Below, piece after piece: positions 1-17,898 of a DNA stretch of 18,555 bases. A model generated the notes under the pieces. The model saw only the letters and a list, made by a program, of their open reading frames with translations. It made no database searches and was not told the origin of the DNA. The DNA comes from an uncultured Muribaculaceae bacterium. GTDB lineage: Bacteria; Pseudomonadota; Alphaproteobacteria; Rs-D84. Numbering within the stretch: position 1 is the first letter of the stretch; every line of letters starts with the position of its first letter. The stretch covers positions 90,899 to 109,453 of the forward strand of contig CAYJKO010000002.1 in assembly GCA_964371145.1 (NCBI GenBank). The letters run 5' to 3'. The position numbers and the translations under genes were made by a program.

Positions 1-135
1 TGTACGTTGCTGGATTGTTAATTCCCACGAATGCATTCGCGGGTCCCTTTCCCCTTCGTACTTTTCCGACTGCATTTTATTTGTCGGCAAAACTTTCGGG
101 TCGAACCTCTGGTTCTCATCTCATGACTCTATCAC

Positions 136-170
136 AAAAAAAATACCACCCGATGGGTGGTATGTTTTTT
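136..170. terminator. Intrinsic terminator-like hairpin inside repeat unit 1 (bidirectional form)
   Basis: A8 (136-143), a 9-bp stem ATACCACCC/GGGTGGTAT (143-151 / 155-163) with loop GAT, then T6 (165-170). A and T runs flank it on both sides. Confidence 0.6.
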
Positions 171-307
171 GGTGTACGTTGCTGGATTGTTAATTCCCAC
201 GAATGCGTTCGCGGGTCCCTTTCCCCTTCGTACTTTTCCGACTGCATTTTATTTGTCGGCAAAACTTTCGGGTCGAACCTCTGGTTCTCATCTCATGACT
301 CTATCAC

Positions 308-341
308 AAAAAAAATACCACCCGATGGGTGGTATATTTTT
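308..341 (-). terminator. Intrinsic terminator of the tRNA-Gly/tRNA-Tyr transcription unit (repeat unit 2 copy)
   Basis: The same 9-bp GC-rich hairpin (315-335) lies directly after the tRNA-Tyr CCA end. It is followed on the minus strand by T8 (complement of A308-315). Confidence 0.75.
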
Positions 342-427
342 TGGTGGGAGTAGCTGGATTCGAACCAGCTCAGTCTGAGACAACAGATTTACAGTCTGCC
401 CCGGCTCTCCAACTCCGGCGTACGCCC
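342..427 (-). tRNA. tRNA-Tyr (anticodon GTA), class II with long variable arm, CCA encoded
   Basis: Minus strand folds as GGGCGTA-CG-CCGG-AGTTGGAGAG-CCGG-G-GCAGA-CTGTAAA-TCTGT-TGTCTCAGACTGA-GCTGG-TTCGAAT-CCAGC-TACTCCC-A-CCA (86 nt). Non-canonical C8 and a C4.U69 mismatch. Confidence 0.9.
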
Positions 428-1306: not shown

Positions 1307-2563
1307 TTATTCATTACGCAATACTTCGACCGGGTCTGTGTTCGCCGCTTTCCATGCCGGATACAATGTCGCAAGAAAAGACAATAAAACCGCAATCAAC
1401 GCAATACCCAATACATCAGTTAATATAATTTTAGATGGTAATTCTGACAAATAATATAATTCTGGTGGGAATAAATCTCTCCCTGTTAAGCTTTGTATAA
1501 ATTGGCGAATGTTTTCAATATATGTTGCAATTAATAAACCCAAACCTGTCCCCATTATCGAACCAATTAACCCTATGCTGGTTCCGGTTAAAACAAATAT
1601 TTTCATCATGGATTTACGTGACACGCCAAATGTTCTCAATACTGCGATATCTTTTGATTTGTCAGAAACCAACATAACCAAACTGGACACGATATTGAAA
1701 GCCGCCACAATTATAATTAACATTAATATCAAAAACATAACATTAGATTCCACCTGCAAAGCGCCTACAAAACCACTGTTTAATTCGCGCCAATCGCGAA
1801 CGATAAAGCTTTCTGGTAATAACGTTTTTAAACTGTCCACAACTTCTGTCGTTTCTTCTGGATTTTCTAAAAATAAATCTATGTGCGTTACAGAATTTTC
1901 GATATTCAAATATTTTTGAGCCGTATTCATAGGCATAAATATATAACCAGAATCGTATTCATACATCCCCATAAAAAACAAAGAAGATACCGGATATGAT
2001 TTAATACGAGGCACAGTTCCGAACGCCGTTACAGACGCACCATTGGCAGACACCAAAGATATTTTTTCACCCACCCCCGCTTTTAAATTACGAGCCATAG
2101 ACACACCCATAACCAATTCGCCGTCTTTTATTTGTGTTAATTCTTTACCGAAACTTTTTGCGCCGCTGTGCATTTTAGATTGCAAATCTTCCATCGCAAT
2201 TCCGCGAACCATAGCGCCCGTATTATTTCCATTTGCAGAAACCATAACCTGGCCTTCGGCGATTGGAATAATATCAACAACAGATTTTTGAACTATTTTA
2301 TTTTGATTCATTTTATCGATTAAAAAATCATAATCGGAAATCGCGCCATCTTGATGATATACAACAACGTGTCCATTCATACCGACGATACGTGATAACA
2401 AAGTATCATGAAATCCACCCATAACAGACATTACAACAATCAATGTTGCAACACCCAACATAATACCCAACAAAGACACCCAAGAAACGACCGATATGAA
2501 ACCTTGTTTCTTTTTAGATTTTAAATATCTGAATGCAATTTTTCTTTCTAATTTTGAAAACAT
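1307..2563 (-). CDS. lolC: Lipoprotein-releasing system transmembrane permease, LolC/LolE family (single copy, LolF-like arrangement)
   Basis: N-terminus KIAFRYLKSKKKQGFISVVSWVSLLGIMLGVATLIVVMSVMGGF, a large periplasmic domain, and a C-terminal FtsX-like TM bundle ending YPAWKAANTDPVEVLRNE. Only one permease gene precedes lolD. Confidence 0.92.
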   Translation of the reverse strand: MFSKLERKIAFRYLKSKKKQGFISVVSWVSLLGIMLGVATLIVVMSVMGGFHDTLLSRIVGMNGHVVVYHQDGAISDYDFLIDKMNQNKIVQKSVVDIIPIAEGQVMVSANGNNTGAMVRGIAMEDLQSKMHSGAKSFGKELTQIKDGELVMGVSMARNLKAGVGEKISLVSANGASVTAFGTVPRIKSYPVSSLFFMGMYEYDSGYIFMPMNTAQKYLNIENSVTHIDLFLENPEETTEVVDSLKTLLPESFIVRDWRELNSGFVGALQVESNVMFLILMLIIIVAAFNIVSSLVMLVSDKSKDIAVLRTFGVSRKSMMKIFVLTGTSIGLIGSIMGTGLGLLIATYIENIRQFIQSLTGRDLFPPELYYLSELPSKIILTDVLGIALIAVLLSFLATLYPAWKAANTDPVEVLRNE

Positions 2564-2585: not shown

Positions 2586-3938
2586 TTATTGACCCAAAAA
2601 TTCACGCAATGAATCTCCGGATAAATCTGATACGCTTGAATTTTCAACCGGTTTTTCATCGACGATTGAAATGACTCTTGGGCTCATAAACACAACCAAT
2701 TCTGCAAATGGGCTGATTAAAGTTTCTGGGGTTGTTACAAACGAATGTGTTGGTATACCGATAATTACATAATTATCACCCAAACTGCTTGGGATTGTGA
2801 ACGAAGACAATTCTCCCTCAGACGTTCTTAATACAATTTTGGCATCAATTTTTTTCTTGTCTCCCATATCTCCATAAGTCGCAACCGCACCCACAGTTAA
2901 ATCAGTTTCCAATCTTTCTTCTTTACCGCATTGACCGATGTCAAATCTGGATTGCCATCCATCCGGTAATACAAAAGTTCCTTGGGAAATTAAAACTACA
3001 TTTGCTTGGCGAGATAAAAATTCTTGCAAAGTTTTTGTATTGATTTCCGGACTGGTAACCAGCGCACGACCAACAACACCCGGCACAGACATTTTAATAT
3101 TATTTTCACCGAACGCAGGCAATAAATTCATCCAAATAATTGGATTATCTGTTCGCGGATACACACGATAAACATCCAAATCCCATGCAATCATATAATT
3201 TTTGTCTGCAACATCATTTACGATTTTTGCAACTTCTTTTTCTGTTTGATAATTGCCTTCGAAAATAACGGTTTTATCTTGCCAATCTACCAATAAATTT
3301 CGCATATCTGCACCGTGCATAGCATCCATCAATGCCATAATAATGCTTTCATCATTTGGCATTTTCATTAACCATTTAGAACGATGTTTCAAATGCAATT
3401 CTTGGGCGTCTGCGTCATAGCTGAAATAACTGCGTCCCATTTTTGTGATTAAATCAATAGCATCCGTTAATGATGCAGATTGAATTGAACCGGATATTTT
3501 ATCTGTTAAATTTTCTTCTGCGACAACCGCAATATCTGTTCCCAATAATAATTTATCCAAAACTTGTTTCACTGTTTTTTTAGAAAATTCATAATCCGAT
3601 ACATTAAAGTCCGGCAACGCGTCCCCGACCCCCAAACGAATTATTTCAATTTCTTCTTCTGGTACGACAGACAACACATTTTGATTATCCCAATCAACCG
3701 TACATCTTTTTGGCAATTCGATAGAAAATCTGCGCGCCGTATCGGTTGTCAAAGCCGCTTTTTTTGGAAAGATGGGTACAGAATTTTCATCTACAACCAA
3801 ATTATCGATAACGGTTACCGTATCATACAAAGGCATTTGATTTTGTTGATTTTGCTGATTCACAGCACACCCTGCGAACAAAGAAACAAATCCTGTTATC
3901 GCAATTGTTTTTATCAAATTTAATTTTGATTCTCTCAT
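2586..3938 (-). CDS. Secretin-family-like outer-membrane lipoprotein (N0/STN-like, Secretin_N-like and compact secretin core); divergent, function unassigned
   Basis: Lipobox SLFAG|C24 with Ala at +2 and a Q/N linker. aa 115-185 resemble an N0/STN fold (VKQVLDKLLLGTDIAVVAEENLTDKISGSIQSASLTDAIDLITKMGRSYFSYD). aa 186-260 resemble Secretin_N (VDWQDKTVIFEGNYQTEKEVAKIVNDV...DLDVYRV). aa 311-424 resemble a secretin core (ANVVLISQGTFVLPDGWQSRFDIGQ...DNYVIIGIP...ELVVFMSPRVI). SD AAAGGGA. Confidence 0.6.
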   Translation of the reverse strand: MRESKLNLIKTIAITGFVSLFAGCAVNQQNQQNQMPLYDTVTVIDNLVVDENSVPIFPKKAALTTDTARRFSIELPKRCTVDWDNQNVLSVVPEEEIEIIRLGVGDALPDFNVSDYEFSKKTVKQVLDKLLLGTDIAVVAEENLTDKISGSIQSASLTDAIDLITKMGRSYFSYDADAQELHLKHRSKWLMKMPNDESIIMALMDAMHGADMRNLLVDWQDKTVIFEGNYQTEKEVAKIVNDVADKNYMIAWDLDVYRVYPRTDNPIIWMNLLPAFGENNIKMSVPGVVGRALVTSPEINTKTLQEFLSRQANVVLISQGTFVLPDGWQSRFDIGQCGKEERLETDLTVGAVATYGDMGDKKKIDAKIVLRTSEGELSSFTIPSSLGDNYVIIGIPTHSFVTTPETLISPFAELVVFMSPRVISIVDEKPVENSSVSDLSGDSLREFLGQ

Positions 3939-3956: not shown

Positions 3957-4268
3957 TTATATATTCATAACTTTTTCAAATTCTGCCAAACTCATTTCAT
4001 GCACAGGCTTTTGTGTAGGAGTCGTCAAATTTTTCACATTTTCGAAAACATTTTCCAATTTTTGCAAAACATTTTTCACATCCGCATTATCAGAATTCAA
4101 TCTTTTTCCATATTCAATTATAAATTCCAAAACATCGGCTGCAAAAAAACGCCCCACATAATTTTCCATTGCAATTCCGCCTTTATTTACGGAAACAGCA
4201 GACATAATCGCAGACATTTGGTTGTAAAAATTTATTAAATTATTAAACTTTTCTATATTGTTTGCCAT
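3957..4268 (-). CDS. Hypothetical 103-aa protein with no signal peptide; first gene of the secretin-like/lolCD operon
   Basis: Clean ORF with SD AAAGG. It ends 18 nt upstream of the secretin-like gene. Predicted helical and acidic; no motif recognised. Confidence 0.5.
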   Translation of the reverse strand: MANNIEKFNNLINFYNQMSAIMSAVSVNKGGIAMENYVGRFFAADVLEFIIEYGKRLNSDNADVKNVLQKLENVFENVKNLTTPTQKPVHEMSLAEFEKVMNI

Positions 4269-4364: not shown

Positions 4365-4745
4365 ATGAAAATAAAAAACTTTATATTTTTAGCATTTTTG
4401 TCCGCATGTTCTTCATACAACACGGGCAACATAAATGACGCCACAATTTTAAATTGGGAAAACGAATTGGTTACAATGGAACAATTTGTTCGTGACCATA
4501 AAGAATGTTTGGGTGTAACGCGTCCAGATCACGCGCCGCGTTCATCTTTGGCAAAAATGTTATCTCCGAACCAATCTGCTCAAATGCCCGACTGGGGTGG
4601 TTTGTGGGTAACGTTCCAATCAAATGAATATTCAGACGTTGGGCAAAGACCTTTGTTATCTATTCCATCCAACTCTACATCTAAATCCGTTGGCACATAC
4701 AGAAAATGTATGTTCCGTTTGGGATATTTATTACGCGCCAGTTAA
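4365..4745 (+). CDS. Small hypothetical lipoprotein (126 aa)
   Basis: Signal peptide with lipobox MKIKNFIFLAFLSA|C. The mature part carries two further Cys (HKECLGV and YRKCMFRLGY). Confidence 0.6.
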   Translation: MKIKNFIFLAFLSACSSYNTGNINDATILNWENELVTMEQFVRDHKECLGVTRPDHAPRSSLAKMLSPNQSAQMPDWGGLWVTFQSNEYSDVGQRPLLSIPSNSTSKSVGTYRKCMFRLGYLLRAS

Positions 4746-4797: not shown

Positions 4798-5481
4798 ATG
4801 AAAAAGAATCTTTTATTTTGGCTGTTTTTTGTTTTATCCATAATGTTTGCAACATATTTTGGAACCCGCGTAACCATGGGGTGTTTTTTCGGCGGTGATA
4901 TATCTTCTGTCAAATCTTTAAAATTCACAGGAAATCTGGATCCAAGAGACATCCCATCTATCCAGGCTTCGATTGGAATATCATCCAAACAAACAAATAT
5001 TTTCGAATTAAATTTGAACGAAGTAAACACCAGAATTTCCAACCGACCTGAAATAAAACATTCATCAGTTCGCAGAAAAGGAAATGGAGTATTGGATATA
5101 ACAATTGAACAATATGAACCGGTCGCAACTTGGACGGATGGACAATTTTATTATCCTATTACAGAAAACGGTATTGTTATCAGCACTCCTACAAATGAAA
5201 AACCGAACAATTCTTTTATATTTACAGGTAAAACAAAAAAATTCATAGGCGATTTAATAACATCAGCACAACCTTTGTTTAACAAAATTGAATCCATAGA
5301 ATTAATTGAAAACAGAAGATGGAACATACATTTAAAAAATGACATTACAATAATGTTGCCAGAAAATGGATTCATCCCTGCCATCGGCAGCTTGATCATC
5401 ATAGATAATAAACATCAAATATTATCAAAAGATATAGAACAAATTGATATGCGCGACGCATCAAGAACTTTGGTTAAATAA
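4798..5481 (+). CDS. ftsQ: Cell division protein FtsQ (bitopic, POTRA domain)
   Basis: N-terminal TM helix (LLFWLFFVLSIMFATYF). POTRA-like IKSLKFTGN...NLNEVNTRISNRPEIKHSSVRRKGNGVLDITIEQYEPVATW. C-terminal IDMRD motif. Sits immediately upstream of the ftsA-like ORF with a 3-nt gap. Confidence 0.85.
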   Translation: MKKNLLFWLFFVLSIMFATYFGTRVTMGCFFGGDISSVKSLKFTGNLDPRDIPSIQASIGISSKQTNIFELNLNEVNTRISNRPEIKHSSVRRKGNGVLDITIEQYEPVATWTDGQFYYPITENGIVISTPTNEKPNNSFIFTGKTKKFIGDLITSAQPLFNKIESIELIENRRWNIHLKNDITIMLPENGFIPAIGSLIIIDNKHQILSKDIEQIDMRDASRTLVK

Positions 5482-5484
5482 AAT

Positions 5485-7242
5485 ATGAATATTGTAAATT
5501 CTTCTTTTTTATGTCTGGATATAAATTCTGACAATGTTGGTGGTATTGCTCATTACATTCGTGACGGCCGTATTATTAAATCCGTTTTACATATGGCAAA
5601 CGTAGAAAACAATGATGTTACATACGCAATAAAAACTGTTCTGGAAGAATTGGATTCAAAAACCGGAATCAGATTCGACACTGCATATATTACAGGTGAA
5701 TTTGGTCAATCTTTTTTTAACGTAAATCTTGTAACTTGTCGTTGGGACAAAAACCATTTGGTTAATAACGCGGATATGTTGGCCGAGATAAAAAAAATAG
5801 AAAACCACCCAGAATTGTGTTTGTTCCATATAATACCGTCCGGTTATACGGATGGCTTGTCCGGCATAGAAAGCACACCTGTTGGAAAAAAATGCAAAAT
5901 ATTAAAATCCAGATTTAATGTAATCAGATATCAAAAAAATGATATAGAAAACATTATATCTATGTTAAAAAAAACATACATACATGCAAAAAGTTTCCAA
6001 GACAAAGCATTTTTAATCAGCACAAAATACAGCCGTAAAAATGAAAATTCCTTGCAAATAGAAATGGGCGGGGATTTCACAACTGTTTCAATTTGGCGTT
6101 CTGGTTTTCCAGTTGTTTTCAAAAAAATACCGGCGGGACAAAATTCTATTGTTAAAAAAATTCAATCTGAATTAAATATTCCATATAACGAAGCGCGTGA
6201 TCTAAAAAATTCCAGCGCGGATATATTTACAAATTCCAGCGACAGTTTTAACATTATAAATCTGGCATATAAATACACAAAAGACGATATTAATTCTATT
6301 ATCATTCAAGAAATTTGGGATATATTAGAAACGATAAAAACTGTCGTTAATCCATTTACAGAAAAATATAGATTAAACAACATATACATTTATGGCACAG
6401 GATCAAATATTAAAAATTTGGATAAATATTTCGCAGAAGAATTTGACGCGCCCGCTACAATTTTAGAAGCGGACGAAGCGTTGCAATGTTTTTCAAAAAG
6501 ATTATTTTCAAATCCTGATAAAAAAGAAAAAACCAGCATATGGTTCGAAAACAAAATAACAGATAAAATTGCAAATTTATTTACAAAAAAAGAAACTTTT
6601 TTTAATCCGATATTCCCAAGCACGATGGCATTTGATGTAAACAACGAATGGACATATTCTCAATTTAAATCGGCCGACATATCTTGTGTTCATATTGATA
6701 TAACTGACGGTTTTTTTGTTAATACTATTTATGGAAATATTGATGATATAAAAACAATAAAAAAGAATTCAAATTTAAAAACTCAAGTCCACTTAATGAC
6801 TGAAACACCGGTCGTTTTGGGAAAACAAGCGATTAATGCAGGCGCAGATACCGTCATTTTATCAGCCGAAGCAATCGGTTCAAAAAATGCCATTTCTGAA
6901 TTAAAAAAGATTGGCGGACGTGTTGGATTGGCAATAAACCCGAACACATCGATACATGTATTAACAGACGTTATAAAACAATTGGACGATGTTTTAATTT
7001 TGGCGGTTGAACCCGGTATGGGCGGACAAACATTTAAACCGGACGTTTTATCCAAAGTAAAATCTTTGGTCGCCACCCGAGATAAATATAAATTGAATTT
7101 TAAAATAACGGTTGACGGTGGAATTAATGATACGGTCGCAAAATTATGTTGGGCGGCAGGCGCAGATTATTTGGTATCGGGTGCACATTTAAAATCTGCT
7201 CCAGATTTTCCATTGGCTGTTAATAATTTGTTAAAAAAATAA
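5485..7242 (+). CDS. ftsA-rpe: Fusion ORF: divergent FtsA-like actin-fold cell-division protein (aa 1-~373) joined in frame to ribulose-phosphate 3-epimerase Rpe (aa ~374-585)
   Basis: FtsA-like segments: FLCLDINSDNVGGIA, HIIPSGYTDGLSGIESTPVGK, IEMGGDFTTVSIWRSGFPVVFKKIPAGQNSIV, IYIYGTGSNIKNLDKYFAEEF, and an amphipathic helix IWFENKITDKIANLFTKK. Rpe segments: IFPSTMAFD, HIDITDG, VHLM, GLAINPNT, LILAVEPGMGGQTF, ITVDGGIN, GADYLVSG. No stop and no ATG lie between the two parts. Confidence 0.8.
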   Translation: MNIVNSSFLCLDINSDNVGGIAHYIRDGRIIKSVLHMANVENNDVTYAIKTVLEELDSKTGIRFDTAYITGEFGQSFFNVNLVTCRWDKNHLVNNADMLAEIKKIENHPELCLFHIIPSGYTDGLSGIESTPVGKKCKILKSRFNVIRYQKNDIENIISMLKKTYIHAKSFQDKAFLISTKYSRKNENSLQIEMGGDFTTVSIWRSGFPVVFKKIPAGQNSIVKKIQSELNIPYNEARDLKNSSADIFTNSSDSFNIINLAYKYTKDDINSIIIQEIWDILETIKTVVNPFTEKYRLNNIYIYGTGSNIKNLDKYFAEEFDAPATILEADEALQCFSKRLFSNPDKKEKTSIWFENKITDKIANLFTKKETFFNPIFPSTMAFDVNNEWTYSQFKSADISCVHIDITDGFFVNTIYGNIDDIKTIKKNSNLKTQVHLMTETPVVLGKQAINAGADTVILSAEAIGSKNAISELKKIGGRVGLAINPNTSIHVLTDVIKQLDDVLILAVEPGMGGQTFKPDVLSKVKSLVATRDKYKLNFKITVDGGINDTVAKLCWAAGADYLVSGAHLKSAPDFPLAVNNLLKK

Positions 7243-7244
7243 AT

Positions 7245-7640
7245 TCATTTGATTGTTATTTTTCGTCCCAATCCATATTCTTCGATATATAAATGAATTG
7301 TATTTTTTGGTAATTTATTCATTGCGATTTCTGGCCATTCTATTAATGTTATATCATTTTCAATAGAATGCATTAAACCCACCTCTTCCAATTCGGACGG
7401 ATCATTTATTCTGTATAAATCGAAATGAGATATTCCATCATAATTCTGAACGATGGTAAAAGTCGGACTGGGCACAACCGTATCATCCCCGCGCAAAGTT
7501 TTTATAATTGTACGCGCGATTTCAGATTTCCCCATACCCAAATTACCATGCAAAGCAACGGTTGTTGGCGCAGTCAAAGTTTTCGCAAAATCTTTTGCGA
7601 ATTGTTTTGTTTCATTTAAATCTTTTAATGTTTTTTCCAT
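7245..7640 (-). CDS. tsaE: tRNA threonylcarbamoyladenosine (t6A) biosynthesis ATPase TsaE
   Basis: P-loop LHGNLGMGKSEIAR, then SPTFTIVQNY...HFDLYRINDPSELEEVG...LIEWPE. Its start lies 4 nt after the uvrB stop. Confidence 0.9.
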   Translation of the reverse strand: MEKTLKDLNETKQFAKDFAKTLTAPTTVALHGNLGMGKSEIARTIIKTLRGDDTVVPSPTFTIVQNYDGISHFDLYRINDPSELEEVGLMHSIENDITLIEWPEIAMNKLPKNTIHLYIEEYGLGRKITIK

Positions 7641-7644
7641 ATGC

Positions 7645-9657
7645 CTACTCCAACAATAATAAATCTTCTTCCATTCTGCGGATTAAATCACGCGCTGTTC
7701 CTGCTTCTTCAAACTCTAAATTTTCGGCATGCTTTTTCATCTTTGCGGTCAAGACTTTTATTTCTTTGCGCAATGATGATGCATCCATAACACCCATATT
7801 TTTAGAATACACGAATTTTTTATTTTTATCGGTTTTTTCTTCTCTGTCCCCGACTTCTGCGAACACGGATTTGGAAACCGTTTTTGGTGTTATACCATGT
7901 TCTTTATTATATTCTTCTTGTTTTTGACGACGGCGCGACGTTTCGTCCAATGCCGCACGCATAGAATCTGTTATTTTATCAGCGTATAAAATTACGCGTC
8001 CATTTTCATTACGTGCCGCGCGTCCAATTGTTTGTATTAAAGAACGAGTCGAACGTAAAAAACCTTCTTTATCCGCATCCATAATTGCAACCAATTCACA
8101 TTCTGGAACATCTAATCCTTCGCGTAATAAATTAATACCAACCAATACGTCGTATTCACCCAAACGCAACGAACGCAATAATTCTATACGTTCCAAAGTT
8201 TCAATATCGGAATGCAAATATCGTGCGCGCACCCCGTTTTCTTGCAAATAATCTGTTAATTGTTCCGCCATTTTTTTGGTCAAAGTCGTAACCAAAACAC
8301 GTCCCGGCAAAACAGATTTTACCTGGCTCAACAAATCGTCGACTTGATTTTTTGTTGGATGGATATCACATATCGGATCTAACAATCCTGTCGGACGAAT
8401 TACTTGTTCTGCGACAATACCATTTGCTTGTTCTAATTCCCAAGCGGCGGGCGTTGCAGACACAAAAACTGTTTGCGGGCGGAACCCATCCCATTCATCA
8501 AAAGTCAACGGACGATTATCGATACAAGACGGCAATCTGAAACCGTATTTAGATAAATTTTCTTTACGCGCCCTGTCTCCTCGGGACATAGCACCAATTT
8601 GCGGAACGGTTACATGGCTTTCGTCTATGAATAACAAAGCGTCGCGCGGCAAATATTCAAACAAAGTCGGCGGCGGTTGCCCCGGCAATCTGCCGGACAA
8701 ATATCTGGAATAATTTTCAATACCACGACACGTTCCTGTTTGTTCCATCATTTCTATATCAAAATTTGTGCGTTCGCGTAATCTTTGTTCTTCGACATAT
8801 TTCATATTTTCATGAAAATATTTTAAACGCGTCGACAAATCTTCTTTTATCTGTCCGATTGCTTGAATAATAGACGGCATAGGCGTCGCGTAATGAGTAT
8901 TAGGATACACAGACACCCCGTCCAAAGTTCGCGTTCTTTGCCCCGTTAAAGTATCAAATTCAAATATTTGTTCTATTTCATCTCCGAAAAAAGAAATCTT
9001 CCAACCGCGATCTTGGGAATGAGATGGGAATATATCTAAAAAATCACCGCGAACTCTAAATTCTCCACGATCAAAACCGACATCATTTCGTTTATATTGT
9101 ATGTCGACTAAATTTTTTATGACTTCTTTTATGGAAATTTTGTCCCCTGTATTTAAAACCAATTTCATACCGCCATATTGTTCAGGCGACCCCATACCAT
9201 AAATCGAAGACACCGACGATATCACAATAACATCTTTTTCTTCCAACATAGCCCGCGTTGCAGAATGTCGCATACGATCCAATTGTTCATTTATGGATGC
9301 ATCTTTATCTATATACGTATCGGTGGTCGGAACATAAGCCTCTGGCTGATAATAATCGTAATAAGACACAAAATATTCAACGTGATTATTTGGAAAAAAA
9401 GATTTCATTTCTGTATATAATTGCGCCGCCAAAATTTTATTCGGCGCCATAATCAAAGCCGGTCTTCCCAAATCTGCAATAACGTTCGCCATGGTAAAAG
9501 TTTTACCCGACCCCGTCACACCCAATAATACTTGGGATTTGTTTCCGTTTTCTATACCCGATTTTAATTCAGCAATTGCCCCGGGTTGATCACCCATGGG
9601 TTTATAATTTGATACAAGATTAAATATTTTTTTATTCACACAATTAATATAATTCAT
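7645..9657 (-). CDS. uvrB: Excinuclease ABC subunit B (UvrB)
   Basis: [11 protein letters not shown], Walker [14 protein letters not shown] box (FIDESHVT), helicase motifs [13 protein letters not shown] and [13 protein letters not shown], and a C-terminal UVR domain ([20 protein letters not shown]). Confidence 0.98.
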
Positions 9658-9663: not shown

Positions 9664-9692
9664 AAAATTACAAGGATGAAAAAGAGAGAATT

Positions 9693-12158
9693 ATGAAACA
9701 TAAAATATTATGGTCGTTTGTCGGTTTATTCACAGTCGCAGGACTGGCAACAGTTATCATTCCCCCATTTGTTAATATAAACGAATTAAAACAGGACATA
9801 GAAAAAGCTATACAAAAACAAACGGGTGATGCTACGAAAATTTTGGGCGACATAAATTTTTCTTTAATCGGTGGCGCACAAATTGTTGCTAACAACGTAC
9901 AATTAGAAAACGGTTCTATTGAACGAATTAAATTTAATATTCCTTTTTCTAAATTATTCGATCTATCCGCTATTTCTTTAACAGACGACGTTACCATTTA
10001 CGGGGCGAATTTAAAAATCACAAATTTAATACCTCCTGAAACAAACAACGTTTTAAACATAAAAAATTCAACATTTGATTTTCGTGGGCAAAAATTTGAA
10101 TTAACAGATACAGAATTAAATGACAATATTTTATCCGGCACAATTAAAACAAATAACGAAGATTATTATATGGTCTTTGACGGGTCAAAATTTAATATCA
10201 AAAACGATGATTATAATATGATATTAAATGGAATTTTAAATCCGGACGGATCAGCCACCGGTTCTCTATTTTTAAACACAAATAAAATAAATGATTTCTT
10301 CAAATTTGAAAATCCTAGAATCAGAAATGATATTTCTGTCAGCGCTAAATTTTATTGGGATGGCGCGCACGGCATTCAATATACAGACATTATTGGATCA
10401 GACATAACCGGTGATGTAAAAACATACAACAATAATCGCCGTGATATAAACTTAATCGCTGAAAACAAAGTCGTTGATTTATCATTCTTAATGACAAAGC
10501 CTGAATTAATATTCACATCCAACATAAACATAGAATTATTCGGTCAAATAAAATTTGGTAAAGATATTTTTGAATATGTAAAAATAAACACTGTTGGCGA
10601 AAACGATAAAATTATCATAAAAGAAATAATTGCGGACGATATTAAAATATCAGGTGGGATTATTACAAAAAACGAATTTGAAAATTTATCTGCAAGCTTT
10701 TTATTAAACAATGAACAAACGTTTTGCCTGTTGTCTGGTAATAAAACAAATTGGACATGCAATGATTTTAAACAAGGCGACATATCAGGCACAATTATAA
10801 AAGCAGATAATTCATTTAACATAAAAATTAAATCGAACGGTAAAATGATAGAAAACACCGGCTTTTATAAACAATTTTTGCAAATTGCAAATAACGGGGA
10901 AATATATTTTGATTTTTCTGACGCCAGCGGAACTGTGGATATAATAGACGGTCGCCCGTACCCTATATATAATTTTATTAAACATAAAAATTTAAATTGG
11001 CTGGATTTAGATTTATATTTTTTATCGGACAAAATGAAGACTGAAATCGGAGATTTGAAATCTGATAAAGATACAATTTATTTCACTGCGAAAGCCAGTT
11101 CTTGGAAATTTAAATTTTCACCGAAAAACAACGAATTTAAAATATCGGGATTATCTATTAAACAATTGTTACCAACAGATATAAATTTATCAGCGTTTAA
11201 CGACAAATCATTTATAATTTCAGGCAAAGTTTATGGCGCAAATATTTATGATTTAAACATTCAAATCGGCGACCATATTTTCAAAGGGAATGCGGTAAAA
11301 AACAACATACAATTATCTGGTGACGTTTTGAACATTGATAATCTTTTATCGAAAAATTACATTGAAAATTATGATGAATTTCAATTTTTAAACCAAGCCA
11401 GTTTTTTAATACCTTTTGATTTTGGTTTAAACATCAGTTTGTCTGCAAATAAATTAATTTATAACGGGGAAACGTTTTCTAATTTTTTATATTCATTAAA
11501 TGACAATGAACAATCTTTTTCAATTGATGATGAATATGCGGGCGATTTATTGACAACAATAACAGACAACAAAACCGATTATGATATATTAATAGAATTA
11601 AATAATTTCGTAACGCGTAACAAATTATTGAACGACCAATCCCCTATTAACATTGAAAACACAACCATCACAGGCCAAGCAAAGTTGAATACATCGGGCA
11701 AAATTGCAGCGGATATTTGGTATAATTTAAAAGGTAACATGGACATTGTTTTTAACGGCGGCAATTTAATCGGATTGGGTATCGATAAATTTTATCAAGA
11801 ATACGAATATATCAATCGTATGAACGCGGAATACGCCATTGCAACAGCATTGGAAACAGGCACAACAAAATTAAAATATTTACGTTTAATCGGAGAATAC
11901 AATAACGGTGATTTTATATCTACAAAACCATTTGAATTATCTATGAACAACAGTCAAGCGAATGGTATTTTAAAAATAATTGATGGTGTTATAGATTTAG
12001 ATTTATCAATTATATTACGTGGGATATCTATGACAGAATCACCGATAAATTTAAACATAGAAAATAACAAAAATCGCAAATATTCTTTATCTGAAATAAT
12101 GGTGATTTTTGACCCGTATTATTTCAAAGATTTTGTTGCAAAGCATAATAAATTTTAG
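9693..12158 (+). CDS. AsmA-family protein (N-terminally anchored envelope/outer-membrane biogenesis protein)
   Basis: N-terminal TM followed by the typical AsmA start (IIPPFVNINELKQDIEKAIQKQTGDATKILGDINFSLIGGAQIVANNVQLENG). Long beta-rich N/K/I-rich body. AsmA_2-like C-terminus (GNMDIVFNGGNLIGLGIDKF...ANGILKIIDGVIDLDLSI). Confidence 0.8.
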   Translation: MKHKILWSFVGLFTVAGLATVIIPPFVNINELKQDIEKAIQKQTGDATKILGDINFSLIGGAQIVANNVQLENGSIERIKFNIPFSKLFDLSAISLTDDVTIYGANLKITNLIPPETNNVLNIKNSTFDFRGQKFELTDTELNDNILSGTIKTNNEDYYMVFDGSKFNIKNDDYNMILNGILNPDGSATGSLFLNTNKINDFFKFENPRIRNDISVSAKFYWDGAHGIQYTDIIGSDITGDVKTYNNNRRDINLIAENKVVDLSFLMTKPELIFTSNINIELFGQIKFGKDIFEYVKINTVGENDKIIIKEIIADDIKISGGIITKNEFENLSASFLLNNEQTFCLLSGNKTNWTCNDFKQGDISGTIIKADNSFNIKIKSNGKMIENTGFYKQFLQIANNGEIYFDFSDASGTVDIIDGRPYPIYNFIKHKNLNWLDLDLYFLSDKMKTEIGDLKSDKDTIYFTAKASSWKFKFSPKNNEFKISGLSIKQLLPTDINLSAFNDKSFIISGKVYGANIYDLNIQIGDHIFKGNAVKNNIQLSGDVLNIDNLLSKNYIENYDEFQFLNQASFLIPFDFGLNISLSANKLIYNGETFSNFLYSLNDNEQSFSIDDEYAGDLLTTITDNKTDYDILIELNNFVTRNKLLNDQSPINIENTTITGQAKLNTSGKIAADIWYNLKGNMDIVFNGGNLIGLGIDKFYQEYEYINRMNAEYAIATALETGTTKLKYLRLIGEYNNGDFISTKPFELSMNNSQANGILKIIDGVIDLDLSIILRGISMTESPINLNIENNKNRKYSLSEIMVIFDPYYFKDFVAKHNKF

Positions 12159-14478: not shown

Positions 14479-14552
14479 TGGTGCCCCAAGCAAGAATCGG
14501 ACTTGCGACTCGTCCTTACCAAGGACGTGTTTTACCACTAGACTATTGGGGC
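14479..14552 (-). tRNA. tRNA-Thr (anticodon GGT), CCA encoded, non-canonical T-loop
   Basis: Minus strand folds as GCCCCAA-TA-GTCT-AGTGGTA-AAAC-A-CGTCC-TTGGTAA-GGACG-AGTC-GCAAG-TCCGATT-CTTGC-TTGGGGC-A-CCA (74 nt). The T-loop reads TCC rather than TTC, and there is a C12.A23 mismatch. Confidence 0.85.
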
Positions 14553-14632: not shown

Positions 14633-14968
14633 TTATTGAACTGAAATTACATCTACTTCTATTTCCGGATTTCCCCACCAAGAATCATCAACTGTTCCAT
14701 ATATAATAACGATGTCATCTGGTGTTATGTTTTGTGGCGGCCAAACATCATCTTCTATTTCAACAACTATATCCCCTGTGCTGTCGGAAAAATTATATTC
14801 TTCGTCATCTATGACATCTTCTATCACTCCACGAACAGCAACATATTCTCCGTCGTTCATATTCCAAACCTCCGACACAGTAATCGGTGTTTCTGACATC
14901 ATCACATATCCCGCATTCGCAGAACCTATCATTGTTATTAATCCCAAAATAAACATAAATTTTTTCAT
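14633..14968 (-). CDS. Periplasmic OB-fold protein, YgiW/YdeI (BOF) family
   Basis: Signal peptide ending SANA|G. Family-typical core TVSEVWNMNDGEYVAVRGVIEDVIDDEEYNFSDSTGDIVVEIEDDVWPPQNITPDDIVIIYGTVDDSWWGNPEIEVDVISV. SD AAGGAG. Confidence 0.8.
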   Translation of the reverse strand: MKKFMFILGLITMIGSANAGYVMMSETPITVSEVWNMNDGEYVAVRGVIEDVIDDEEYNFSDSTGDIVVEIEDDVWPPQNITPDDIVIIYGTVDDSWWGNPEIEVDVISVQ

Positions 14969-14988: not shown

Positions 14989-15351
14989 TTACATTGCTTG
15001 AATCGAATACACATCTACAACGGACCCGTCCATAGTGCCGTATATCATAACCATATCATCCGGCATAGATTGCATCGGCCAAACGGTTTCGTCAATTTCA
15101 ACAATTATATTACCGGTACTGTCGGTAAAAACGTATCTGTCTTCTGCAACCATATCTTTAACTGTTCCGTACAAAATTACATTATTGCCAGAACCTATTG
15201 TCATTACTTCATCAACCATCATAACGGTATTGCCGGCAGATGATTTATTTTTCATATCGTGATTATGATGCATACTGTTTGTATGTCCCCCCGCATTTGC
15301 AGCCATAATTGATAAACCGAATACGCTGGTCAAAGTTAATATTTTTTTCAT
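14989..15351 (-). CDS. Periplasmic OB-fold protein, YgiW/YdeI (BOF) family paralogue with His-rich N-terminal segment
   Basis: Signal peptide ending AANA|G, then GHTNSMHHNHDMK. Core is paralogous to the downstream gene (DRYVFTDSTGNIIVEIDETVWPMQSMPDDMVMIYGTMD). Confidence 0.75.
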   Translation of the reverse strand: MKKILTLTSVFGLSIMAANAGGHTNSMHHNHDMKNKSSAGNTVMMVDEVMTIGSGNNVILYGTVKDMVAEDRYVFTDSTGNIIVEIDETVWPMQSMPDDMVMIYGTMDGSVVDVYSIQAM

Positions 15352-17821: not shown

Positions 17822-17898
17822 TGGTAGCGAAGGAGGGACTCGAACCCCCGACACGTGGATTATGATTCCACTGCTCTAACCACCTGAGCTACTTCGCC
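17822..17898 (-). tRNA. tRNA with CAT anticodon: elongator tRNA-Met type (lysidine tRNA-Ile2 not excluded; not initiator)
   Basis: Minus strand folds as GGCGAAG-TA-GCTC-AGGTGGTTA-GAGC-A-GTGGA-ATCATAA-TCCAC-GTGTC-GGGGG-TTCGAGT-CCCTC-CTTCGCT-A-CCA (77 nt). G1.U72 wobble. It lacks the initiator GGG/CCC anticodon stem and the C1xA72 mismatch. Confidence 0.88.

Follow-up and report, generated by a model that had tools for sequence, protein, structure and literature searches.

Does the cell-division protein FtsA share a single polypeptide with a sugar-phosphate enzyme, ribulose-phosphate 3-epimerase (Rpe), and, if so, how did the two come together and what would their union do? The question is raised by a gene in an 18,555-nucleotide (nt) stretch of DNA, hereafter the window, from an uncultured bacterium of the alphaproteobacterial GTDB lineage Rs-D84 (assembly GCA_964371145.1, contig CAYJKO010000002.1, positions 90,899 to 109,453 of the forward strand). 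The ftsA::rpe gene (5485..7242 (+), 585 codons plus stop) was delimited by Pfam and NCBIfam matches and by full-length homologues in one frame. Its start is separated by 3 nt from the end of ftsQ (4798..5481 (+), 227 amino acids (aa); Pfam POTRA_1 and FtsQ_DivIB_C). An initial annotation, made from the sequence alone, had described a 585-aa open reading frame (ORF) right behind ftsQ, with no stop codon, start codon or Shine–Dalgarno (SD) sequence between the halves and no ATG for the Rpe part ahead of its first β-strand. ORF analysis of the window agreed on each point. A single 585-aa frame runs from 5485 to 7242 (+) without a stop between the FtsA and Rpe halves. The codon that opens Rpe strand β1, directly ahead of P-S-T, is TTC, no start codon is conserved inside the frame, and the first downstream in-frame ATG (M381) lies beyond β1.

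The fusion proved to be genuine, old and conserved. When 5.8 billion proteins were searched with the window protein, 264 matched. The best 120 of these were all 585–607 aa long, carried both PF14450 (FtsA) and PF00834 (Ribul_P_3_epim) and were 36–40% identical to the window protein; the initial annotation had proposed just such a search for the same architecture in relatives. A scan of one genome per GTDB species gave no match with the single window protein as query. An alignment-based scan was needed, and it yielded at least 588 confirmed candidates, the best 80 of which were kept as loci and covered query residues 1 to 583–585. Both halves lay in one frame (588–608 aa), with ftsQ directly upstream, in 83 of 83 related loci, and the fusions of the relatives P0142, P0133 and P0130 also stand directly behind ftsQ. 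The ratio of non-synonymous to synonymous substitution rates (dN/dS), estimated from 49 sequence pairs with unsaturated dS, was 0.09 in the FtsA core and 0.06 in Rpe, with 0.23 in the linker between them, which indicates that both halves are under strong purifying selection.

This conservation also bears on whether two separate genes were joined by an error of sequencing or assembly. The linker-coding DNA of the window contains two homopolymers, A7 (6585–6591) and T7 (6597–6603), and an indel in either run (6585–6603) could create such a join. However, hundreds of independent assemblies whose linker DNA is unrelated show the identical in-frame architecture, so the A7 and T7 runs cannot account for the fusion, and an indel artefact was ruled out. 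The runs are harmless here, yet the site is prone to indels.

The N-terminal part of the protein (aa 1–343; 5485..6513 (+)) is, according to profiles, an AlphaFold2 (AF2) model and Foldseek, a divergent yet complete FtsA fold, with the core of the actin/ASKHA (acetate and sugar kinases/Hsc70/actin) type. The model had a predicted local distance difference test (pLDDT) score of 84.4 overall and of ∼80–93 over the FtsA core. Its best Foldseek matches were the FtsA structures 3wt0, 3wqt, 1e4g, 4a2a, 7q6f and 7q6d (E 1e-22 to 1e-18), with template modelling (TM) scores of 0.65–0.73, normalised to the target, over ∼350–390 aligned columns. The family profile matched six solved FtsA structures with E-values of 5e-16 to 2e-13 over profile positions 10–338. 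In this way the FtsA relationship of the N-terminal part, as first annotated, was substantiated.

A subdomain is inserted at the position of the FtsA 1C subdomain (SHS2 insert; aa ∼76–163, 5710..5973 (+)), as seen in both the model and the profile alignment. Its modelled elements are a strand at 76–92, a helix at 95–103, strands at 111–122 and 136–150 and a helix at 151–163, and the FtsA profile alignment spans the insert ('lHiiPlrYd..tPvG' versus 'lHViPqey..nPvG'). The Pfam SHS2_FTSA model scored above its cut-off in the fused relatives P0137 (44.4 bits), P0141, P0142 and P0131; it was matched by one of 19 core members, and the window protein fell below the cut-off. Three FtsA nucleotide-site motifs could be aligned: phosphate-1, D12-I-N14-S15 (5518..5529 (+)), where relatives have D-I-G-T/S; phosphate-2, E193-M-G195-G-D-F-T199 (6061..6081 (+)), where relatives have D-L/F-G-A-E-F-T and which aligned to 'vvDiGaGtmd' of V. 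maritimus FtsA; and adenosine, G304-T305-G306 (6394..6402 (+)), where relatives have G-G-G. The versions D-I-G-T/S, D-L-G-A-E-F-T and G-G-G are nearly invariant in the fusion family. D12 is invariant among relatives, and G14, D193 and G305 are each present in 81 of 82, the window protein having N, E and T, respectively, at these positions.

The curated FtsA cut-offs were missed by the window protein. Pfam PF14450 matched aa 192–329 (E 4e-7), the whole protein reaching 30.9 bits, 0.9 below the gathering score of 31.8, and the N-terminal part alone 32.0 bits; the ftsA equivalog TIGR01174 gave 49.5 bits against a cut-off of 175.85, within a range of 45–165 bits across the fusion family. Could the domain then be another actin-like ATPase, related to PilM or MreB and with a different role? 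Besides the low equivalog score, this idea can draw on the PilM_2 and MreB_Mbl models, which also match most members, on the PilM-like phosphate-2 motif D-x-G-A-E-x-T, and on a single-sequence search of the Protein Data Bank with the N-terminal part, a weak search that placed an MreB first. Nevertheless, TIGR01174 outscored every other actin-family model in 25 of 25 members (best E 2.6e-27, versus 5.5e-12 for pilM). FtsA structures match the whole domain, whereas PilM (2e-10) and MreB (3e-9) matched the family profile at positions ∼180–330 only, that is, over half of it, and the Foldseek comparison with PilM gave a TM score of 0.51 with a root-mean-square deviation (rmsd) of 9 Å. The gene always stands behind ftsQ, and the equivalog scores form a continuous series, with unfused FtsA (243–263 bits) at one end, the core family at the other and P0137 (165 bits) in between. 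We thus regard a PilM-like or MreB-like identity as very improbable, and the initial annotation's own doubt, that homologues might show the N-terminal 370 aa to be unrelated to FtsA, found no support in this series.

A search of 1.84 billion representative proteins with the N-terminal profile found 28 at E≤1e-30, namely the fusion family and fragments of it; beyond these, the nearest were FtsAs of canonical length (390–440 aa). The more distant fused proteins P0137, P0141–P0147 and P0179 likewise carry Rpe, and the gene order around P0137 is ftsI-ftsQ-fusion. Compared with the canonical FtsAs of E. coli, T. maritima, S. aureus and V. maritimus (7Q6D, 1E4F/4A2A, 3WQT and 7Q6F), the fusion shares the actin fold with its 1C-type insert, the position of the gene after ftsQ and a putative amphipathic helix behind the core, and FtsA is the top profile and fold match of its N-terminal part. 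It differs in that the window protein is only 13–17% identical to solved FtsAs, in that the membrane helix is internal rather than C-terminal and is followed by an enzyme domain of 213 aa, in the lack of a downstream ftsZ and, in the window copy, in the altered nucleotide motifs.

The C-terminal part (aa 373–585; 6601..7239 (+)) is a complete Rpe (β/α)8 barrel by Pfam, NCBIfam, alignment to 2FLI and Foldseek. PF00834 matched aa 390–567 (E 1e-38) and the NCBIfam rpe subfamily PRK05581 scored 174 bits, above its cut-off of 165; the equivalog TIGR01163 gave 134.8 bits, below its cut-off of 212.6. The profile match to 2FLI had an E-value of 1e-49 and covered chain residues 6–214 of 220 at 35% identity, and Foldseek superposed the Rpe part on 2FLI with a TM score of 0.91 and an rmsd of 1.5 Å, as expected for the full-length triosephosphate isomerase (TIM) barrel that had been proposed. 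Alignment to 2FLI placed the metal ligands at H403 and D405 of the H403-I-D405 motif (6691..6699 (+)), H436 of the VHLM motif (6790..6792 (+)) and D544 of the VDGG motif (7114..7116 (+)), D405 and D544 being also the catalytic acid/base residues (roles after bioRxiv 10.1101/2022.09.29.510120). These four correspond to H34, D36, H67 and D176 of 2FLI and are all present in the window copy; none of the 82 fusions compared differs at any of them. S379, D408, G409, P510, G511, Q515 and the DGG motif are likewise invariant in the 82 unique fusions, and the PGxxGQxF motif is invariant or nearly so.

In addition to the metal and acid/base residues, Rpe relies on three pocket methionines that stabilise the enediolate intermediate (bioRxiv 10.1101/2022.09.29.510120). 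The first, second and third of these are present in 81, 82 and 81 of the 82 fusions, respectively. With the metal tetrad and the Met triad kept in nearly all fusions, most of the clade very probably has an active epimerase, as far as can be told from conserved residues. The window copy departs from this pattern. Its pocket holds T407 (6703..6705 (+)), M438 and L506 (7000..7002 (+)), methionine standing at the first and third positions in 81 of 82 relatives each, with the relative P0127 also having leucine at the third; A567 (7183..7185 (+)) replaces the serine that 80 of 82 relatives have in the G-S motif of the phosphate site. The earlier statement that the Rpe catalytic positions appear intact is hence correct for the tetrad H403/D405/H436/D544 and does not extend to T407, L506 and A567. 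Like the stand-alone enzymes of S. pyogenes (2FLI), potato (1RPX), Synechocystis (1TQJ) and human (3OVP), the fused domain has the full barrel, the metal tetrad and the phosphate loops. Unlike them, it has no start codon of its own, its N-terminus is joined to FtsA and the window copy has lost two of the three pocket methionines as well as the G-S serine. FtsA is attached where β1 begins, on the face of a TIM barrel that lies opposite the active site.

Between the two domains lies a basic linker (aa 344–372; 6514..6600 (+)), predicted to be flexible from AF2 pLDDT and charge. It occupies the position at which unfused relatives have the C-terminal membrane-targeting helix of FtsA. The segment IWFENKITDKIANLFTKK (aa 352–369; 6538..6591 (+)) aligned with the terminal '...SKILAKVKKWIDDNF' of the unfused FtsA P0149 and '...LFGKIRKFINDNF' of P0154. 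By this alignment the segment is a homologue of the FtsA amphipathic membrane-targeting helix, now internal, and the initial annotation was right to pick out an FtsA-type helix here. In relatives the linker is ∼46 aa long with a net charge of ∼+10, and across 82 fusions its hydrophobic positions are kept at helical spacing, with a K/R-rich run behind them. The model of the relative P0018 (pLDDT 90.6) has a helix at aa 347–371 (pLDDT 74–90), after which come eight disordered basic residues and then Rpe β1; in the window model, aa 344–371 have a pLDDT below 50 and form a helix of just five residues. The hydrophobic moment of the window segment was 0.54, against 0.50–0.58 for the unfused C-termini.

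The origin of the fusion can be read from its neighbours. The best-scoring stand-alone FtsA, P0149 (MCT4552437.1, 420 aa, annotated FtsA), comes from an alphaproteobacterial metagenome-assembled genome (MAG) in which ftsQ, ftsA and rpe follow one another unfused (loci L086/L087, 10001–11954). Its ftsA ends in '...SKILAKVKKWIDDNF*', a typical amphipathic membrane-targeting helix, a 16-nt spacer with GGAGG follows the stop codon, and rpe starts with 'MFKKRKQKIQISPSIF...'. In gene order and orientation this operon is the same as the fusion locus, and in the alignment the FtsA end and the basic Rpe tail 'MFKKRKQK' before β1 coincide with the fusion linker, for example '...LSKIATFFHRKKVVKQKKFIPIMPSTL' in P0018 and '...ITDKIANLFTKKETFFNPIFPST' in the window. 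It differs in having two genes, separated by the stop codon and the GGAGG spacer, and an FtsA that scores 242.7 bits, over the equivalog cut-off. Since the closest stand-alone FtsA belongs to an unfused ftsQ-ftsA-(16 nt)-rpe operon, comparison of the sequences indicates that the fusion is the result of the loss of the stop codon and spacer between adjacent ftsA and rpe genes. In a second unfused relative, P0154 (L088, 5001–8767), the order is ftsQ-ftsA-ATP-binding cassette (ABC) exporter-rpe, and in a third, P0155, there is no rpe nearby; the first two arrangements imply that rpe was linked to ftsA before the fusion.

A neighbour-joining tree, which is rough and open to long-branch attraction, grouped all 19 fused FtsA domains together, P0137 branching off first, which suggests one fusion event. 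FtsA hidden Markov model (HMM) scores fall from 243–263 bits in unfused proteins to 165 in the basal fusion P0137 and 45–72 in other fusions, while Rpe HMM scores stay at ∼174–194 bits throughout, apart from lineages with a dead enzyme. It follows that the FtsA domain changed far more after the fusion than the enzyme did.

The carriers of the fusion are, by their record titles, MAGs named Alphaproteobacteria, Rickettsiales or Candidatus Enterousia, all from uncultured organisms of rumen, colon, faeces and anaerobic digesters. The clade is Candidatus Enterousia/GTDB order Rs-D84 and relatives, with reduced genomes. Enterousia, which lies within Rs-D84, has genomes of 0.67–1.6 megabases (Mb), no respiration or tricarboxylic acid cycle, an incomplete glycolysis and a non-oxidative pentose-phosphate pathway without transaldolase (PMC12306168). 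Further ftsA or rpe paralogues would be unlikely in genomes of 0.7–1 Mb. Within the clade the window protein is an outlier, its FtsA core being 32% and its Rpe 50% identical to those of the other members; its nearest relative is P0127 (44% identity). Neither in fused nor in unfused relatives (loci of P0149, P0154 and P0155) is ftsZ adjacent to ftsA, and this branch of the Alphaproteobacteria no longer has the classical ftsQ-ftsA-ftsZ cluster in one piece. Searches of 8 million full-text papers found no description of an FtsA-Rpe architecture, in line with what had been stated at the outset, and FtsA is not mentioned in the papers on Enterousia/Rs-D84. In the databases the protein is already present hundreds of times, as 'ribulose-phosphate 3-epimerase' or 'hypothetical protein' (PGAP, IMG). 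What is new is a domain architecture made from two well-known families, conserved across a large uncultured clade and with an origin that is directly visible.

Some members of the clade have moved away from the common pattern. The window copy itself is, from its residues, an unusually derived member. P0127 carries N14, S305 and L506, and is thus changed at three of the positions altered in the window; these are therefore changes of the lineage and not sequencing errors. Two AT-rich lineages have gone further. P0133 (589 aa; locus GC content 25.6%; loci L091/L092/L093/L094, gene at 10001–11770 in L091) has 'FYTTIMDG', 'SGAEIE' and 'VCGDI' in place of the Rpe active-site motifs and has also lost the FtsA nucleotide motifs. 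It still scored 88.9 bits with the Rpe Pfam model and was found in ten full-length copies from several sources, on contigs of up to 198 kilobases (kb) and in the same gene order. P0130 (575 aa; locus GC content 23.6%; L090, 4568–6295; same gene order) has 'NIDIYDG', 'INLM' and 'IYDIY'. Both lineages keep the ORF intact and appear to have pseudoenzyme versions of the fusion, and the retention of a dead domain in extremely reduced genomes suggests, on evidence that is thin, a non-catalytic role.

Taken as a whole, the data are best explained, we think with reasonable probability, by a fusion of the clade's ftsA with the downstream rpe in which the job of FtsA was kept and Rpe became both enzyme and oligomerising appendage. 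In the ancestor of the clade, ftsA would have been joined in frame with the rpe immediately downstream, giving a product with a fast-evolving but complete FtsA domain, a linker made of the internal helix and a polybasic tract, and a complete Rpe TIM barrel. The N-terminal part would still act as FtsA, binding FtsZ and holding the Z ring on the membrane, and anchoring would be through the internalised helix and the basic tract. Rpe would be made only within the fusion protein and would still be an active epimerase in most of the clade. Rpe enzymes are obligate oligomers, either dimers or trimers of dimers, and such dimers or hexamers would make FtsA constitutively multivalent, the barrel serving as a structural, oligomerising appendage of the division protein. 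This structural role would explain why the barrel is kept where catalytic residues are lost, and multivalency could account for the fast divergence of the FtsA domain as well as for the persistence of dead barrels. What the sequences show directly is the architecture, its conservation, its origin from neighbouring genes, the purifying selection on both halves and the survival of dead Rpe domains; membrane binding, FtsZ binding, enzyme activity and oligomerisation with its effect on FtsA are inferred. Of the two functional proposals made initially, a tethered enzyme and a structural appendage, both are compatible with the data as interpretations, and the lineages with dead Rpe give hints in favour of the second.

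Several observations weigh against this explanation. ftsZ never occurred within ±10 kb of the fusion in the 83 or more related loci probed with an E. coli FtsZ sequence. In a shuffle test the amphipathicity of single linkers was not significantly above that of shuffled controls, and the case for the membrane helix is made by homology to the unfused C-termini and by the conserved hydrophobic pattern. AF2 models gave a predicted TM (pTM) score of 0.57–0.61 against a pLDDT of 84–91, that is, no fixed contact between the domains and a disordered linker. The window protein departs from its family at near-invariant ligand-site positions of both domains. Finally, the dN/dS of the P0133 lineage (0.31–0.39 overall and 0.12–0.57 in the Rpe-like part) rests on few substitutions, those of the Rpe-like part numbering 2–7 non-synonymous and 3–6 synonymous.

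The missing interdomain contact makes a functionally neutral fusion a serious rival. Here, co-transcribed neighbours in a shrinking genome would simply have been joined when stop codon and spacer were lost, in the manner of a 'Rosetta-stone' pair, both proteins keeping their jobs on a flexible tether and the linkage having no functional consequence. An adjacent unfused ftsA-rpe pair in a relative, the disordered linker with its low pTM, the strict conservation of Rpe catalytic residues in most members and the strong genome reduction of the clade (0.67–1.6 Mb; PMC12306168) all fit this. Yet among the clade members examined none has re-split the gene or shed Rpe, the two dead AT-rich lineages included; FtsA diverged sharply after the fusion and Rpe did not; and the linker has kept the putative membrane helix and its charge of ∼+10. 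We therefore hold a passive fusion to be a possible but doubtful account. Somewhat less likely still is that the lineage of the window already has a catalytically impaired Rpe domain, perhaps with an impaired FtsA nucleotide site as well, the barrel being a pseudoenzyme that acts as a structural module only. M407T and S567A occur in the window alone, M506L is common to the window and P0127, the affected Met triad stabilises the reaction intermediate, and the FtsA changes G14N, D193E and G305T add to these, the altered FtsA and Rpe positions being kept in 80–81 of 82 relatives; in P0133 and P0130 even metal and acid/base residues were lost. Against this, the four metal and acid/base residues, S379, D408, PGMGGQTF and DGG are intact in the window copy, its PRK05581 score of 174 bits is still over the cut-off, and Thr, Leu and Ala are mild replacements. 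Reduced or lost catalysis in the window lineage is thus possible on the residues seen.

A further alternative holds that the fusion exists at gene level only and that two proteins arise from the one ORF, either because translation can also start at the junction or because the linker is cleaved by proteolysis. ATG or TTG stands just before the β1 P-S-T in 60 of 84 sequences, and the linker is flexible and basic; but in the other 24 that codon is TTA, CTG or TTC (TTC in the window), 67 of 84 lack a Met in the 32 residues ahead of the junction, and the fusion no longer has the GGAGG spacer seen in the unfused relative. No SD-like motif was found upstream of the junction in the 84 sequences, a result that tells nothing either way given that true starts show one in just 4 of 84. 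Production of two separate proteins accordingly seems improbable. Rpe might also have been recruited as a regulatory and scaffolding module of the divisome. Its oligomerisation, possibly modulated by pentose phosphates or metal, would set the polymer state of membrane-bound FtsA and thereby wire pentose-phosphate status directly into the anchoring of the Z ring and the activation of the divisome, with a pseudoenzyme scaffold left in the most reduced lineages; we consider this version unlikely.

The explanation that we favour, an FtsA that keeps its job with Rpe as enzyme and oligomerising appendage, can be set beside known systems. It is chiefly FtsA that anchors the Z ring to the membrane, and current models of divisome activation turn on its oligomeric state and its free C-terminal helix. 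Engineered variants of FtsA, including ones with a swapped anchor, affect the very properties that a C-terminal oligomeric domain would perturb, the C-terminus and oligomeric state of FtsA controlling its polymerisation, membrane binding and divisome activation (PMC4252000, PMC11323482). Those variants are laboratory constructs or point mutants, whereas the fusion is natural and clade-wide. Moonlighting enzymes that regulate division, such as UgtP of B. subtilis, OpgH of E. coli and GdhZ/KidO of Caulobacter, offer a second parallel, in that an enzyme of central metabolism is physically tied to the FtsZ machinery. They are separate proteins that bind FtsZ conditionally, while the enzyme of the fusion is covalently and permanently joined to FtsA.

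The surroundings of the gene are those of the clade. Window GC content is 34.5%, and the gene order, lolD-lolCE-two unknowns/lipoprotein-ftsQ-fusion/tsaE-uvrB/asmA-like...aspS, is the clade order. Two genes downstream of lolCE/lolD (2586–3938 (−), 450 aa, and 3957–4268 (−), 103 aa) and a 126-aa lipoprotein-like protein upstream of ftsQ (4365–4745 (+)) had no Pfam match; the same arrangement of the three recurs in 72 of the 83 related loci, as it does around P0142, P0133 and P0130, and they look like a clade-specific envelope gene block. An 821-aa protein (9693–12158 (+)), whose position is conserved in 64 of 83 loci, had a faint N-terminal AsmA match (E 7e-4) and may be a divergent AsmA-like lipid-transport protein. 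The genes at 14633–14968 (−) and 14989–15351 (−) are tandem paralogues for secreted BOF proteins (YgiW-like OB-fold, PF04076). The window also contains an adjacent pair of tRNA-Tyr(GTA) and tRNA-Gly(TCC) genes (342–508 (−)) and, elsewhere, tRNA-Thr(GGT) (14479–14552 (−)) and tRNA-Met(CAT) (17822–17898 (−)). A listed ORF at 15..353 (+), which runs into the tRNA-Tyr gene, is probably spurious, and those at 9668..9997 (−), 1509..1919 (+), 3564..3923 (+), 7508..7927 (+) and 10544..10858 (−), on the strand opposite to real genes, are likely spurious as well.

For the annotation of these genomes, the name 'ribulose-phosphate 3-epimerase' means that in surveys of metabolism and of the divisome FtsA looks missing and Rpe ordinary, and that surveys would mistakenly count an Rpe in lineages like those of P0133 and P0130. 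For the biology of division, a whole order of gut bacteria has placed a presumably oligomeric enzyme of 213 residues behind the membrane helix of FtsA and has never lost it, even where it is dead. The clade is thus a natural experiment on how far the C-terminus and the valency of FtsA can change, and it may represent a hard-wired link from central metabolism to cell division.

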